Of a DNA stretch of 62,295 nt, positions 27,001 to 60,000 are shown piece after piece. Source of the stretch: Kiritimatiellia bacterium. Its GTDB lineage: Bacteria > Verrucomicrobiota > Kiritimatiellia > RFP12 > JBMNHG01. Position numbers: made by a program. Position 1 is the stretch's first letter. Each line of letters starts with the position of its first letter. The stretch lies in assembly GCA_050950285.1 (NCBI GenBank), contig JBMNHG010000002.1, forward strand, positions 186,001 to 248,295. The letters run 5' to 3'.

Positions 27001-30000
27001 CCGATCGCGCAGGCAAACACGTTTTCCGGGAACGCCTTTGAAATCGCGATAAAACCCTGCAAATCAATGGGGGGAAAGGGGGCAGTATGCCCGTTTTCAG
27101 CCGCCTATGGGATGCTAGTGACCTCGGGAAAGGAAAACAAGGCTTGCCGCCGCCGTTGGCCCGTGCTACGCTCCCCACCATGGATACAAGTTGCATGTCC
27201 TCCCTTGGGCCGCGGTTCCGGCGGCGCGCCGTTTTTCTCCGGGCCGTCGCCGCCTGTGCCGCCGCGGCGCTTGCCGCGACCGCGCCGGCGCTGACGCTCG
27301 ACGTGCCGCGCCTTCCCGCGCCCGCTTTTGCCGACCGCGAGGCGTCCGCCGACGCCGCCATCCCCGCGTCCGCCGCCGGCAACCTGCGGCGCTTCCGCCT
27401 GGAGCTTTCCTTCGACGCCACCCCCTCGAACAACGTGCAGGCCGCCTTCGGGCGCGACGCCGCGCCGCACGACGGCGCGCTGGCGGCGGAGGAGACGGCC
27501 TTCGTCGTCGGCTGGGACGGCGGCGAGTGGTTCCTGCGCCCCGCCGGCCTGAAGGAACGCTTCGCCCACGCCCCCTCCGACGGCCCGGCACCCCGGAGGC
27601 GGACCCTCCACGCCGCCATCCGGGTCGACGCGGCGGGCGTCCCGGCGTCGGTCGCGTTCGGCGACGATGCGGGCGCCTTCGCCTTCGAGGGGCTCCCAGC
27701 CTCCCCGCCGCCCCCCTGGCTTTCCCCGGGGGAGTGGGACCTCCTGCGGGTGACCGTCCGCGGCGCGGCGGCCGCGGAGGAGGACGTCCTCGTCCGCTTC
27801 CTGCCCGACGGCGCCGTGATCCTTCTGCGGTAGAGCCATGGGACTCCTGCAGTCGATGCACCATTGGATGTTCGCGGGCGCCTGCCTGCTGGCCGGCGTG
27901 CCGCTGCTCTTCTGCCTCGGCGCCTGGGCCGGGACGTCGCCCGGCCTGCGCCGCCTCTTCCGCGCTCTCGGCGACCGGTTCCGCTCGCTTGCGCCCTCCG
28001 TCAGGGCGGCGCTCTCCGCCCTCCTGGTGGTCGCCACCCTGCACGGCGTCCCGAAGGTGCCGCCCGGCGGCAATGCCCCGTCTTCCGGCCCTCCCCCGGC
28101 GGGCATGGTCTCCGGCGGCCTCCCGGCGCGGCCCGCGCGCGGCCCCTCCTCCGGCCCCCGCCTGACCGCCGGCCAATACCGGGCCGGCTTCGCGCTCGCG
28201 CGCGTCGCCACCAATCCGTCTCCCGCCCTGGCCTCCGTCCCGTCGAACGCCGTCGTCCACGCCCCCTGGACCCGCTACGGGGTGGCCGAGGACACCTTCT
28301 GGCTTCCCGCCACCAACTGGTCCTTCACCCTCGGCACCAACCGCGTCGGGGGGCTGCACGTCTCCAGCAGCGGCACGCTCTCCTTCGGTTGGCCCAAGGG
28401 CTCGCCCCGCGCCCGCCGGATGCCCGACGGCTCGGGCCTCGACTTCCTCGCCCCCCTGCAGACCTCCCTCGGCATCGTCCCGCCGGCCGGACGCTTCTGG
28501 CACGCCCCGACCGCCTCCAACAGCCTGCTCCTCGCCTGGCAGGACGTCTTCGCCGGCCGCGACGCCGGCCTCCCCGTCACCTTCCAGGCCGAACTCTTCC
28601 CCTCCGGCGACTTCGTCTACCGCTACGACTTGTCCCGGCTGTCCGCCACCAACGCGCTGCCCGCCACCAACTGGGTCGTCGGCGCCCAGCACGGCGGCGG
28701 CGGCGAGACCTTCGCCTTCGGCGGCACGGGCGTCCTCGTCCACGGCCTCGAGCTCCACTGGCGCGCCTTCGGCATGCTCGACCCGGACATCGCCGACCAC
28801 GACGGCGACGGACTCTCCACCTGCGACGAAGTGATGGTCCACGGCACCGACCCCCGCCTGCCCGACACCGACCTCGACGGCGTTTTGGACGGCGCCGAAG
28901 TCGCCGCCGGAACGAGTCCGCTGCTCCGCGACACCGACGGCGACGGGCTCGTCGACGGCTCCGACCCCGACCCGCTGTCCCCGACGCCGCCCGACGACCT
29001 CGACGGCGACGGCATCCCCGACGCCTGCGAAACGGCGAAGTTCGGCGGCACCAACGCGGTGGACAGCCTCGCCTACGATCCCTACGACACCGGCTTCCCG
29101 CTCTCGACGAAGATCGCCGCGGGCATGGACCCCTTCGCGGAGGCTTCCGCTCCGACGAACCTCGCCTGGAACCTCGCCTCCCTCAAGCTCTTCGACGCCT
29201 TCCGGTGCGACCTCCCCGCCGACGGCACGAACCGGGTGTACGAACGCACCTTCACGATCGACCGCAAAGGCGGCTGGCAGCAGTACTTCCTCTCCGCCTC
29301 CTCGAATGCGCCCGCAGGCTGGTCGCTCGACGGCATGGCGCTCGAGTGGGCCGACTCCGAAGGCGGCTCCGGCACCGCGACCGCCTCGCCGCCCGACGAC
29401 AGCCTCTGGCTCCCCGTCTCGACGAACGCGCTGCAACTGACCCTCGCGCTCCGCGCCACCTCGACGAATTCGACCTGCCCACAGCCGCTGTACCTGCTGG
29501 CCTGGGCGCCGGGCGTCCTCGTGGACGGCGCCGGGGCGGCGGCGGAAATCAACGGCGCGCGCTGCCAGGCCGTCGAATGGACGGGCGGCGGGACGTCGGT
29601 CGGCGTCCGGTACGACTTCTCCAACCGCCCCTGCCGCGCCGCGCCCTCCGAGATGGAACAGGCCGCGCTCCTCGACCCGTTCCCCGGCGAAGCCCGCCTC
29701 GTCTTCACGCCGGACGGCGGCTTCACGGGCGGCTCGCTCGCGGCGAAGGCGCCCGGCATCTACGACGTGCCCGGATGCACGATCGCCCCCGCGCCGCCCC
29801 CGGCGCGGCGGGGCGCCCGGGGCGCGGGCGGCAGGGGCGACCCCGGGGAAGGCCCGGTCGAACGCCTCCTCTTCTTCGAACCCCGCATCGCCTACGGCGA
29901 CGGCCGCCACGGCGGATGCGGGACCACGCTCTTCTTCGACGCCGCGACGGGCGACTACGAGCCCGCTTCCGACTACCCCCTCGACAGCCGGTGCCTCCGG

Positions 30001-57000: not shown

Positions 57001-60000
57001 TGAAACCGGGCTCTACTACTACGGCTACCGCTTCTACGCGCCGGAACTGATGCGTTGGCTCAACCGGGATCCGATCGAGGAAGAGGGCTTCCGTGCCGCA
57101 TTCTCCGGCGCCCTGATAGGTGCACCTATCGAGGCCGCCGTAGAGGTTCTCGCGAACATATCAGGCCAAGCGTTTTCGGGTGAATTACCGGTCGGTCTCT
57201 TCGCGCATGGCGACCAGAACACCTACCTCTTTGTTCTCAACCGTCCAGTCAATCTTAAGGATCGCTTGGGGCTCGACATCACGCTGGAAACCGGGAATCA
57301 TGCGCCTTGGTATCAGTTCCTCAACAACTTGGTTCACCAGCAAGTCTGCGTTGATCTATGGGATGATAAGAAAGCGTGTACCGAGGAAAACAAATGGGAC
57401 TGCTGCCATGCAGGAAAGACATGCTTCTCATTTGGGGCGACGGGGTTTCAGACACCGCAATTTTCGACGACTTGGTTGGGATGGAGAAGTTGGATTGTCG
57501 GTGAGATAATGAAAGGCGAGATCTATGAAGCCGAACCCGTTTCGGGAGCAACCATCAACGGGACGCACACAACAACCATGCAACAGGATGAGAAGTGGCT
57601 GAGTTACATGTACGGGCGAGTCGACACGCAGGGTGGGTATTCGGCCGCGCACCACAACTGTAGAAAATACTCCCAGTGGGAGTTTCGTGACGCTCTTCTT
57701 CATTGGTAAGGTTGTGCAATGGCAATACGGAGAAATCTGATGTGGGCAGGCGTCCTTGCTGGAGTTCTCGTGGTGGCCTTCTTGCTGTTTTCGGCAACAA
57801 CAATAATACCGCCGAAGGATCTCACACGCACACGCTTCAGAGCTTTGGAAGTTCGCATTCGCCATAGCCTTGCACAAGGACAAGACGTGAATTCGCTCGA
57901 TATCAAAACACTGCCAGAAGCTCCGGGCAAAGATAACGCAACTACGGACGGTTGGGGTCATCCTATCGTCATGAGGGTCGATGGTTCTATCATCACCCTG
58001 ACAAGCTATGGGAAAGACGGCAAACCTGGCGGAACCGATCAAGATGCAGACATCGAACATCGATTTTCAATTGGTCATCGAAAGCAACTCGAGTAACGAT
58101 CAAATTACTCCTGACGTAAAGCTCGGTCATGTACTTCCTTAACGGCAACGTCCAGGCCTACGGCCACATGAGCAGAAGGGTGCTGAAAGTCTCACGCGGA
58201 GGTAAGATGAGAAGGCTGTTCTCCTTGTGAAAGGTTTCCGGCACAATGCCTGAAACCGTTACAGTTACGGTAAAACGCACTCGAAGGTGCACACAAGGAG
58301 AACAGCCATGAAGAAGGTTACAGTAATCGGCATGGATTTGGGAGACAAAAGCCAACACAAGGCCATCGGGCTTTTCGAAAGCGGCGAGGAGCCCGGCAAC
58401 CCTTCACGTCCTTGCGCTCCCCGTCTCAGGACGCCCTCGGTGTCCAGTATTTGACGGACCGCGCATCCGTGCGGCCGTGAAACTCGCCATTACGGTGGCA
58501 TCGGATGAAGAGGATCGTTCGGCTGTCTGGGGTTGCTGCTACCGCCGGCAGAGACTACCAGCTCGTCGTCGACCCGCCGCTTGGCGCCAGCGGCGGCTGG
58601 TTCGCGTGGAGACCGCCTGCAAAACCGGCGCGGCACAGGGCGATACCAGAACCAAAACATGCGTCGTCGCTCCGGCCGACAGCACCATGCTTCATCATCG
58701 CCTTACGCGCGAATCGGATGGTGCCGTACCGGCCGAAGCGACGACCGGTTGGACAGAAGGTTAGACGGCGCGCCGTCTTAATCCTTCTTCTGCCACTTGT
58801 CGATCCAGGCCTTGGCCTGATCCTTGCCACCGAGGCCGAAGGCCAGACCGACGGCGATCGCGGCACCGCCCAGCAGGGTCGAGACGGCGACCATGACGAT
58901 CTCCTCGCCGATGCCGAACTGCTCGAGCGCCATGCTGAAGCCCAGCAGGTAGACGGCATAACGGGTCACGGTCGAGAGCGCCTTGGCGTTCGGGCTGCCC
59001 TCGAGGGTGCTGGCCGTCAGATTGCCGAGGTAGCGTCCCAGGCTCAGCGCGGCCAGCAGGATCACCAGGCCGACGAGGAGGTCGGGCAGATAGGTGACGA
59101 TCCGGCCGATCAGATCGGCCAGTTGGTCGAAGCTAAGCGAGGCCGCGGCCTGCTGCGCCGTGATGAGGAGGATCACCACCGAGACCAAGGCACCCAGCAC
59201 GCGCGAGAGCGGCGTCTTGCCCGAGAGGAAGTCGAGCCCGATGCGCTTTGGCAGCTCGTCGGCGCCGATACCGCCCAGGAAGCTCTCGACGAGCGAGCGG
59301 ACGGCGCGCGCCACCACGCAGCCGACGATCACGATGACCGTGGCCACAAGCAAGGCCGGCACGGCGGACAGGATGCTCTGCAGCGTGGCCTTGAGCGGAT
59401 CCGAGAGGGCCTTGATGTTGAGGCTGTCCACCGCCGCGACCAGGATCGGGATCAGGATGAAGAAGTAGGCGATCTTGGCGGCGATCACCGAGAGCTTGTA
59501 CTCGCCCAGCAGCTTGCCCAGGCCCAGCTTCTCGGCACCGGCATCGGCACCGCTGGCGGAGAGGAAGTTGCCGACGACCTCGCGCACGATGCCCGCCACG
59601 ATGCGGCCGACGATGACAATCAGCGCGGCGGCGAACAGGTTCGGCAGGAAGGCCAATGCCTTGGCCAGCATCTGCTGCAGCGGCGCCACGAGGGCCTGCT
59701 GACCCATGGCCTGCAGGAAGGGCGGCACGCCGAAGAGGAGGATGACGTAGAACACCAGGCGACCGATCATGGCGCTGGGCGGCGTCGCCTCGCAGGCCTC
59801 GCCCTCGCCCTCCTTGGCAAGCGGGCATTCGAGGTGCTTGGCGGCACGGCTGTCGAACTTGACGGCCGCCAGCAGCCGCGTGACGCCCAGACGGGCCACG
59901 GCGGCGAGCGCCCAGTAGACCAGCAGAATCGCCGCCGCCTTGAGAAGGGCGGGAATGGCGGTGAAGATGCGGTTGACGATGTTCTGCAGCGGTGCGGCCA

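Follow-up and report, generated by a model that had tools for sequence, protein, structure and literature searches.

Organization of the locus

The window analysed here, a stretch of 62,295 nt, belongs to the genome of a Kiritimatiellia-like, uncultured digester bacterium (assembly of 12 contigs, completeness 99.35%). The DNA of the window also recurs in metagenomes from digester, bioreactor and landfill. The following features were identified (window coordinates, strand):

27144..27172, +, candidate promoter (TTGCCG-17 nt-TACGCT, extended -10 TG), ending 7 nt before the partner ATG
27180..27833, +, partner gene (putative carrier), 217 aa: signal peptide, predicted ConA/galectin-like beta-sandwich, C-terminal tag
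27262..27804, +, internal segment of 543 bp, missing in 11 of 16 near-identical copies elsewhere in the genome
27810..27830, +, C-terminal tag of the partner (GAVILLR), outside the predicted fold and the predicted interface
27838..35427, +, full-length RHS toxin-like protein, 2,529 aa, starting 4 nt after the partner stop
27838..28053, +, its leader: two hydrophobic helices with a basic amphipathic helix between them, followed by a G-x-x-K motif
28159..28773, +, nidogen-like beta domain (residues ~108-312; language-model lead), predicted docking site of the partner (complex model)
28789..29037, +, TSP3-type calcium-binding repeats (PF18884 trace), with the RHS/non-RHS junction (~residue 349) inside
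31888..34767, start approximate, +, YD/RHS shell ending in an RHS core with both DPxG motifs (TIGR03696, TIGR01643)
34768..35424, +, variable C-terminal domain (tip), 219 aa, 57% identical to the tip of C2:659288-666874
35424-35966, 35945-36439 and 36533-37000, +, three small low-GC lipoprotein-like genes, putative immunity genes, no family match
36997-38589, +, orphan RHS cassette 1
38574-38963, +, lipoprotein-like gene behind cassette 1
39186-39647, +, small membrane-anchored gene
39652-42861, +, orphan cassette 2
42977..44278, -, IS4-family transposase (PF01609 and DUF4372), with further copies in the genome
45065-47059, +, orphan cassette 3
47056-47778 and 48206-48805, +, exported small genes after cassette 3
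48795-51881, +, orphan cassette 4, GDSL-lipase tip (PF13472/PF00657 above cut-off)
51878-52747, +, WG-repeat lipoprotein behind cassette 4 (PF14903 above cut-off)
52770-56120, +, orphan cassette 5
56125-56439, +, small membrane protein after cassette 5
56225-57709, +, orphan cassette 6
57719-58096, +, putative immunity gene with a pseudopilin-G-like domain

The shell of the 2,529-aa protein scored above cut-off for TIGR03696 (74.5 bits), TIGR01643 and PF05593, and its DPxG-terminated core lies directly before the variable tip, as in RHS polymorphic toxins; six orphan cassettes and small downstream genes complete a polymorphic-toxin layout. The PDB sequence search returned matches to residues 2022-2326 only, as the first-pass annotation had stated. 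The 219-aa tip matched no family, and gene 35945-36439 looks similar, on visual inspection, to the gene that follows the related tip on C2:666874. Curated families were recognized on four of 37 tips (Tle1, GDSL lipase, Tlde1 and AMOP); the other 33 matched none, so toxicity is inferred. The pair formed by the GDSL tip and the WG-repeat protein of cassette 4 also occurs on a non-RHS member. An N-terminal hydrophobic stretch was present in 35 of the 40 genes lying behind toxins of this class and cassettes, against a background of 22%.

A common front end on different bodies

Across the genome, 57 ORFs carry the RHS core end and three match DUF6531, in agreement with the many RHS cassettes and the three DUF6531-RHS proteins annotated previously. 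The arrays are indeed interrupted by IS4 elements and group II introns, the latter in other RHS arrays of the genome, with none in the 62,295-nt window. The N-terminus of the window toxin has 16 near-identical genomic copies on RHS and non-RHS bodies, 13 of which align unbroken across 381 residues (94-100% identity) while three are fragmented. Three copies, at 94%, sit on non-RHS bodies (C2:801552, C2:806453 and C8:550681), so the reported recurrence holds. However, near-identity between RHS and non-RHS bodies stops at about residue 349, within the TSP3 repeats, and the 381-residue extent reflects BLAST extension through homologous repeats. Of the 13 RHS-type copies, only four are single intact frames; seven are frameshifted and two run off contig ends, so the short members of the class described as ten RHS proteins of 1,158-2,541 aa are pieces.

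The shared front of ~349 residues consists of the two-helix membrane leader, the nidogen-like domain and the TSP3 repeats. The hydrophobic start and the repeats had been noted earlier, whereas the folded domain between them had been overlooked. The leader helices are predicted at residues 2-33, 35-49 and 53-69, a pattern conserved among relatives, in which the G-x-x-K motif is typically YGGSKP; insertion by Sec/YidC followed by signal-peptidase cleavage may be envisaged. Some relatives bear a plain signal peptide and still have the partner and the nidogen-like domain. The identity of this domain comes solely from a protein atlas (language-model) lead (0.95, 181 shared features, NIDO on 69% of the matched cluster): Pfam gave no NIDO (PF06119) match on it at E<=0.01, and the PDB fold search no clear fold match. 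PF18884, a trace on the window toxin, is above cut-off in many relatives.

The partner gene and its deletion

The partner gene starts at the ATG at 27180, rather than at the previously noted 27195. Its product matched no Pfam or NCBIfam family and belongs to an unannotated family of 1,184 clusters at 50% identity. The AF2 model (pLDDT 85) has the beta-sandwich of ConA-like lectins and galectins (Z ~10.5, rmsd 2.8, 134 aligned residues; 56 chains at Z>=8), and it is on this predicted fold that the lectin-type assignment rests. The candidate promoter, below the threshold of a consensus scanner (which found none), is also kept in deleted copies; since it ends 7 nt before the ATG, the transcript is possibly leaderless.

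Six upstream genes 99% identical to one another had been reported. Four partner genes are indeed intact (98-100%), but one is partial/frameshifted, two have diverged (51% and 30%), and 11 copies retain only a remnant. The 543-bp deletion in these 11 of 16 copies, five of which have intact toxin frames, is real; its joint (27261->27805 or 27264->27809, at short microhomology, leaving 30-36 codons) was found in contigs of all three DNA runs (three studies) and of the one RNA run. Loss of the partner in so many copies implies either that it must act in trans or that it is dispensable.

A predicted complex between partner and toxin

When the partner was modelled on the nidogen-like domain, the complex scored 0.80, compared with 0.00 for the best of three controls; in the benchmark of this score, the mark was attained by 116 of 157 solved complexes and two of 215 mismatched pairs. 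The runs shared at least 97% of contacts, with a partner pLDDT of at least 79, and the tag was left free in the docked partner. PDB searches retrieved no complex resembling the partner plus nidogen-like domain. Among 150 divergent representatives, polar residues of the predicted interface were more conserved than the rest of the partner (0.63 versus 0.36; 0 of 20,000 permutations), as were all interface residues together (0.60 versus 0.42; P = 0.0007). The toxin side of the interface was no more conserved than the rest of its domain (P = 0.18 for polar, 0.58 for all residues). The conserved acidic residues of the partner could instead bind calcium or a sugar, as the modelled lectin fold suggests.

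In this genome, a partner or its remnant was present at all 18 nidogen-like loci. Where loci were found by the partner search alone, the domain lay downstream of 28 of 36 evaluable partner genes and was absent behind eight; where they were chosen by the module search (rows merged per gene), nine of 33 module genes had no partner hit in front. The intergenic gap, 4 nt in the window, is mostly 0-16 nt among relatives, and 89 of the 151 genomes from the host's order contain the partner. Three TSP3-lipase proteins, a 1,845-aa RHS protein and the DUF6531 class lack the module, an adjacent partner and the tag; untagged, partnerless toxin-like giants of this genome thus apparently exit without the module.

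The C-terminal tag

Partner residues 210-216 have a pLDDT below 50 and are absent from the modelled interface residues, the tail being free in the partner model as well. The pattern, G-x-x-h-h-h-R, ends 72 of 1,945 called genes of at least 100 aa (3.7%), against 19 of 10,578 shadow ORFs (0.18%) and 0.10% of internal positions. An N-terminal hydrophobic stretch was found in 59 of these 72 proteins, compared with 358 of 982 untagged proteins of at least 400 aa. Among the 150 divergent partner representatives, 139 ended in a loose and 69 in a strict form of the tag (background, 44 of 1,873), with the profile G-[TFL]-x-h-x-h-[RK] and no Trp; none of 67 module-bearing toxin homologues (some partial, five from this genome) had the strict form. 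In a phylum sample, each of the 11 other genomes that gave strong partner hits contained at least one strict tag, while in one family (f11) the strict tag was missing from 14 of 15 genomes and a strong partner hit from all 15; one f11 genome (G036) has a divergent partner with an end lacking R/K. This co-distribution comes largely from one clade, and one to three pattern matches per genome are about what chance would give.

Secretion machinery of the host

Profile searches for Hcp, PAAR, VgrG, TssC/VipB and the contractile sheath (PF04984 included) were empty in the 99.35%-complete assembly, with positive controls in each, so the absence of VgrG, Hcp and PAAR noted in the first pass stands. 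Hcp was found in one of the 151 genomes of the order. Searches for a TssD/T4 gp19-like tube, and for SprA and PorP of the T9SS translocon, also gave no matches, but their controls were silent too. The toxin was considered as a T6SS Rhs effector and rejected, there being no PAAR or VgrG on it or in the genome and no Hcp, TssC or sheath. Contact-dependent inhibition/two-partner secretion was likewise discarded: the toxin has no TPS domain (PF05860) and no adjacent TpsB barrel, the single ShlB/TpsB match of the genome (on C11) adjoining its own TPS protein (TpsA). The genome does hold six secretins, pseudopilins, a GspK-like gene and 27 prepilin motifs; GspK-like genes end, by eye, in a W-containing strand of their own.

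Proposed mechanism and alternatives

The evidence points to a two-protein module in which the toxin brings a membrane leader and a nidogen-like domain for docking and a separate partner brings the tag. The shared, T6SS-independent export module proposed in the first pass survives as a common front end on different bodies, found across the order, but the export function would belong to this pair of proteins rather than to the 381 residues. The reading we prefer, although held tentatively, is a lineage-specific two-gene polymorphic toxin system in which Sec-exported toxins borrow a surface-sorting tag in trans from a carrier. The sequence shows large proteins in which a constant front is joined to exchangeable bodies, either an RHS shell or a non-RHS stalk, and to variable tips; small exported genes and orphan cassettes come after them, and no T6SS is present as far as profiles reach. 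Sec would carry the toxin across the inner membrane by means of the hydrophobic leader, and the partner would cross using its own signal peptide. In the periplasm, the model suggests, the partner would bind the nidogen-like domain. Its free 7-residue tail, presumably the sorting tag of the lineage's surface proteins, would bring the complex to a machine for export or display at the outer membrane, probably among the T2SS/type IV filament systems. The toxin could not itself end in the tag, since its C-terminus is the swappable toxic domain; a few intact partner genes may supply the copies whose partner gene is deleted. The toxins probably act on the cell envelope: the tips would attack membranes and cell walls of neighbours, and lipoprotein or membrane immunity proteins would guard that of the producer.

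The main rival makes the partner an accessory subunit (a lectin-like adhesin like MafA, a receptor-binding arm or a folding chaperone), with the toxin surfacing via its own leader and a general route and the tag placing only the partner on the surface. The lectin-like fold, the MafA precedent, the 11 deleted partner genes and the giants lacking tag and partner all favour this reading, which we nonetheless consider rather unlikely, given that the tag is kept on 139 of 150 divergent partners and missing from 67 toxin homologues, and that the most conserved surface of the partner is the predicted toxin interface, not a free sugar site. It is improbable that the toxins stay in the inner membrane or periplasm by an uncleaved leader and reach rivals through vesicles or lysis, stabilized by the partner. 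Two long hydrophobic helices in place of a classical signal peptide, and the exported immunity-like genes, would fit such anchoring, and vesicle delivery has been proposed for MafB. Against it, the small-residue motif after helix 2 resembles a cleavage site, and some relatives have an ordinary signal peptide. The nidogen-like and TSP3 domains are, moreover, typical of surface proteins.

That the proteins are variable surface enzymes or adhesins, and the small genes not immunity genes, would accommodate the 33 tips lacking a curated family and a nutritional use of lipase and deiminase tips; the order of toxin, small gene and orphan cassette, the low GC of the tips, the Tle1 and Tlde1 families and the recurrence of matched tip-gene pairs at separate loci make this very improbable. 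Least likely is that the proteins leave through a T6SS or contractile apparatus which diverges too far for the profiles to recognize or which the assembly lacks. In its favour, T6SS have known Tle1 and Tlde1 tips, the genome is still divided into 12 contigs and the TssD and tube controls were silent; yet five families are absent with working controls, there is no PAAR, membrane leaders are present, and Hcp occurs in 1/151 genomes of the order against 89/151 for the partner.

Should the borrowed-tag system be correct, a sorting signal in trans would explain how a protein can exchange its C-terminus freely although the lineage sorts surface proteins by that end. A bolder version, possible but doubtful, is a new export class in which a universal carrier lends the Kiritimatiellia C-terminal tag to any protein with a nidogen-like domain, with strand addition as the means of loading toxins, RHS and non-RHS alike, onto a type II secretion or type IV filament machine; a single carrier gene would serve many toxin loci. 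For the exit of large RHS/polymorphic toxins from diderm cells lacking a T6SS, the module supplies both candidate halves, with an interface predicted to the residue. Being the smallest natural tag-bearing protein seen here (180 residues), the partner is a practical bait for the tag's reader. The literature searched held no description of a partner-carried tag system for toxins.

Comparison with known systems

In Eag-chaperoned T6SS Rhs proteins and in CdiA/CdiB, as predicted here, an upstream helper gene binds or exports the toxin N-terminus. Eag chaperones act in the cytoplasm and have no signal peptide. The PAAR and VgrG of the T6SS Rhs/Eag systems are absent here; the partner, unlike CdiB, does not form an Omp85 barrel, and the sole TpsB of the genome has its own adjacent TpsA.

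RHS toxins that do without a T6SS have precedents: WapA of Bacillus is an example given in PMC4436062, and Sec export is the default route for RHS toxins in Table 1 of Zhang et al. 2012 (PMC3482391). As presented there, WapA and the 'T2SS/Sec-dependent' class share with the window toxin an RHS shell, a variable tip, an immunity gene, an N-terminal export signal and independence from T6SS. The window system differs in having a diderm host, a leader of two helices along with nidogen-like and TSP3 domains, and a partner gene of its own; for that class, Table 1 of PMC3482391 names no neighbourhood gene, and the main text of the paper contains neither 'nidogen' nor 'thrombospondin'. The terminal strand of PilC/PilY1 is comparable to the tag in being a free peptide of ~7-10 residues at the protein terminus, through which a protein could be loaded onto a filament machine. 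According to section 5 of PMC13711793, however, that strand has a conserved Trp (W-R-E) within the last ten residues, whereas the tag has none, occurs on ~70 unrelated proteins and was seen in no PilY1 context.

The MafA/MafB/MafI system of Neisseria, as described in PMC4287609, likewise pairs a polymorphic toxin, whose constant N-terminal domain is restricted to its lineage, with a small exported gene immediately in front, which is missing in some classes; it also has a Sec-dependent first step and downstream cassettes. In that account MafB secretion continued after deletion of mafA, and the outer-membrane step of MafB is not known. Neither DUF1020 nor a MafA match was found by Pfam on the window toxin and partner. 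In contrast to MafAB, the window system has bodies of 900-2,600 aa with an RHS shell or stalk, and its partner is a non-lipoprotein, a predicted toxin binder and the bearer of a C-terminal tag.

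Organization of the toxin locus

The window lies at C2:186001–248295 of an assembly of 4.05 Mb in 12 contigs (99.35% complete), C2 being contig JBMNHG010000002.1 and the other C numbers further contigs of the same assembly. Its DNA recurs in 17/24 among the sequencing runs listed (word share 0.70–0.77), all of them digester, bioreactor, sludge or landfill metagenomes; RNA-labelled runs gave three weak matches (share 0.05–0.08), one of which yielded 9 short contigs. The named relatives are MAGs labelled Kiritimatiellae or Lentisphaerales. Window positions are as follows:

3652–7191: SGNH hydrolase frame, ordinary
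7196–9553: pyruvate-formate-lyase-like glycyl radical enzyme, ordinary
12809–12963: two tRNA genes, ordinary
27180–27833: partner gene (217 aa), encoding a putatively exported protein directly upstream of the toxin
from four bases after the partner gene: RHS protein, 2,529 aa
thereafter, ending at 58096: three small lipoprotein-like genes, then six orphan RHS tip genes (cassettes) with small genes and IS4

GC content is 0.51–0.60 over most of the cassette region vs 0.67–0.74 before it. A promoter scan upstream of the partner gene returned 0 consensus sites. The model of the toxin front end, hereafter the module (pLDDT 88), comprises helices at residues 2–33, 35–49 and 53–69, a disordered linker, a beta domain at 111–312 and calcium-type (TSP3) repeats. 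Pfam gives no match to the beta domain and the PDB no clear one, leaving a nidogen-like lead only. A fold search with the 420-residue model as one query returned nothing at E≤0.001, and its best score (Z 6.2) came from the calcium repeats alone; since the model was searched whole, the fold of the beta domain is not thereby established as new.

Copies of the module and the bodies they carry

The first-pass annotation described a 381-residue N-terminus common to RHS and non-RHS bodies. The sharing holds, the length does not: near-identity ends at about residue 349, within the repeats. Near-identical copies number 16 in the genome, 3 of them with a non-RHS body; two further non-RHS loci (C6:56k and C11:372k) have diverged. 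Among the 13 RHS-type copies, 4 read as one uninterrupted frame, 7 carry frameshifts in the assembly (real or sequencing error) and 2 run into a contig end. The RHS core end is present in 57 ORFs, and three DUF6531 matches bear out the three DUF6531-RHS proteins counted previously.

The non-RHS members look like toxins as well. Those at C2:801552 and C2:806453 show 7 differences in their first 900 residues and diverge beyond, and their tips recur on other bodies. At C11:372k the protein terminates in a domain resembling GDSL lipase (30.7 bits, slightly short of the cut-off) and a WG-repeat gene comes next, a pair of the type found in window cassette 4. Relatives have an arginine deiminase or alpha/beta-hydrolase domain at the C-terminus. 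Among 28 toxin genes found behind partners in an unbiased sample collected by partner searches, 7 are RHS, 1 has RHS nearby and 20 are non-RHS, with a few truncated at contig ends.

A second toxin-like class (C3:219456–225566, C3:666418–674190 and C11:258315–264071) has TSP3 repeats, an alpha/beta-hydrolase-like tip and orphan tip cassettes, with a plain signal peptide on two members and neither nidogen-like domain, partner nor tag; in relatives, proteins with the module also carry its tip family. A single 1.93-kb group II intron is present in about ten copies, almost only in RHS arrays (C2:685k and 689k; C3:574k and 580k; C6:17k; C7:31k; C8:818k–824k; C12:17k), and its two target sites, both in the RHS core, equal window 34003/34004 and 34471/34472. 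Some copies pair the 5′ flank of one site with the 3′ flank of the other, a pattern that suggests recombination between cassettes mediated by the intron. C12 repeats the cassette array of C3:245k–260k with tips 100% identical, reflecting segmental duplication or assembly redundancy.

The partner and its C-terminal tag

The partner has no family match in Pfam or NCBIfam. It matches 1,184 clusters at 50% identity, the best 150 representatives measuring 124–263 aa. Its model shows a signal helix and a ConA/galectin-like sandwich, the last 7 residues being unfolded. The Tat consensus is RRxFLK; the RRR stretch of the partner was not read as a Tat signal because its spacing misfits this consensus.

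Those last 7 residues fit a tail, G-x-x-h-h-h-R (the tag), seen on 72/1,945 called genes; this rate is 20-fold that of shadow ORFs, and most carriers are large exported proteins. Because the 2,021 genes called are probably an underestimate, the tag counts represent minimum values. The strict pattern has 47 matches in this genome vs 1 in the reversed control. Divergent partners carry the tag in 139/150 cases by the loose pattern and 69 by the strict one, close partners in 84/120 (strict), and it is absent from all 67 toxin homologues. No partner–toxin fusion was found among proteins of 393–2,000 aa (weak evidence); an apparent 1,165-aa fusion in genome G004 is merely a long open frame upstream of the partner start. 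A 967-aa tagged exported protein starts just past the toxin array (window 60861–62295, continuing to C2:249764).

The partner tracks the nidogen-like domain across the order

The partner is present in 89/151 genomes of the order; in a phylum sample it was found in 12/32 other same-order genomes and 0/268 of the remainder. Each of the 18 nidogen-like loci in this genome is accompanied by a partner or its remnant, one weak extra domain match being a subtilase without partner. Linkage was sampled without bias from 40 regions chosen on partner matches alone: 28 of 36 partner genes with at least 1.2 kb downstream are followed by a nidogen-like domain, and 8 are not. In a module-biased set (rows merged per gene), a partner precedes 24/33 module genes, and two of the nine without one show a remnant or divergent partner by eye. 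Loci with an ordinary signal peptide retain both partner and domain; it is therefore the nidogen-like domain, not the leader, that the partner tracks.

The strict tag occurs in families f6, f9, f10 and f12 of the order and is missing in 14/15 genomes of family f11, which also lack strong partner matches; resting on this one clade, tag–partner co-distribution is weakly indicated. At L138, an f11 locus (G036:C5), a divergent partner with a hydrophobic tail lacking R/K still precedes a nidogen-like gene, and its ending is possibly a variant tag. At L053, in another genome, a short remnant with a tag-like frame at its end lies upstream of a partnerless toxin gene, which suggests that the partner eroded independently with its 3′ end kept.

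Predicted complex and loss of the partner gene

Toxin residues 104–385 and partner residues 38–216 (numbered from window 27183) were modelled together, with an alignment for each. The complex scored 0.80 vs 0.00 for the best of 3 controls; the score mark is attained by 116/157 solved complexes and 2/215 mismatched pairs. Contacts agree by at least 97% between runs, partner pLDDT is at least 79, and every confident contact falls within the nidogen-like domain, the tag taking part in none. The model supports binding of the partner to this domain. The partner interface is the family's most conserved surface (R193, E53, G194, N83 and D51 at 0.94–0.99; polar 0.63 vs 0.36). The toxin side shows no overall conservation enrichment (p=0.18), with G148, G212 and R241 near-invariant.

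Eleven copies lack ∼543 bp of the partner gene, retaining the promoter-like region, ∼29 codons and the last few partner codons. An assembly artefact is ruled out, since the joint recurs in contigs of independent runs (3 DNA runs, each from a different study, and 1 RNA run), with intact partner contigs alongside in the DNA runs. Five deleted-partner loci have intact toxin frames, so that the partner either works in trans or is dispensable, an observation that cuts both ways. We infer that the toxins pass through Sec and would receive a surface-sorting tag in trans from the partner; the main rival makes the partner an accessory adhesin like MafA. Counting against tagging in trans, other toxin-like giants of the genome lack module, partner and tag, and no tagged partner was seen upstream of the TSP3-lipase giants, the 1,845-aa RHS protein or the DUF6531 class. 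The observed architecture, linkage, tag statistics and deletion belong to a real order-wide polymorphic toxin system.

Tips and putative immunity genes

Excluding near-duplicates and short tips, 37/52 tips were put to Pfam: 4 scored above the curated cut-off (Tle1, GDSL, Tlde1 and AMOP), 2 gave weak matches and 31 none; Tle1 is present in 4 copies and GDSL in 2. The next ORF was located for 48 of 50 toxin ORFs (46 of the 57 RHS ORFs and 4 non-RHS). An N-terminal hydrophobic stretch occurs in 39/48 of these, vs 22% of 764 genes of similar size: 35/40 in the module class and its cassettes, 4/8 in other classes. The toxins probably act on the cell envelope. The putative immunity gene behind cassette 6 (window 57719–58096) has a match to the T2SS pseudopilin G domain (E 1.9e-6) and no prepilin cleavage motif; a pseudopilin fold may have been recruited here for immunity.

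Export route and comparison with known systems

Profile searches with working controls found no Hcp, PAAR, VgrG, VipB or sheath gene, in agreement with the first-pass annotation that T6SS genes are missing; Hcp occurs in 1/151 genomes of the order. Searches for T9SS, TssD and tube proteins gave no match, their controls being equally silent. The three Omp85 matches include one TpsB, and two-partner secretion was ruled out because this TpsB sits beside its own TpsA (C11:336580–348874: a 1,154-aa TpsB-like gene, then a filamentous-haemagglutinin-like TpsA split into several frames). The genome holds 6 secretins, 27 prepilin motifs, a GspK-like gene and Verru_Chthon-like cassettes, and the best guess, by elimination only, is export by a T2SS or type IV filament. 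Minor-pilin clusters at C3:719031–724722 and C6:422k–427k, whose proteins weakly resemble those of Verru_Chthon cassettes and include very large PilX/GspK-like ones, are candidate readers of the tag; GspK/PilX-like proteins lie at C3:719031, C6:423655, C6:376507 and C6:131238. Of the GspD-type secretin genes, one immediately precedes a tagged giant and a second is two genes away from a partner/toxin locus (C3:420357–425955 and C6:56027–61944), a proximity that may be chance.

No published description of the partner family, docking domain or whole system was found in literature searches with little coverage of subscription journals; the supplements of PMC3482391 might list the N-terminal domain. 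Sec-exported RHS toxins without a T6SS are already known (PMC3482391 Table 1; PMC4436062), so the absence of a T6SS is not itself novel. The nearest precedent, MafA, was not required for MafB secretion (PMC4287609). Loading of adhesins onto type IV filament tips by a terminal strand is established (PMC13533445, PMC13711793); the tag described here differs from the strand as given there in lacking its Trp.
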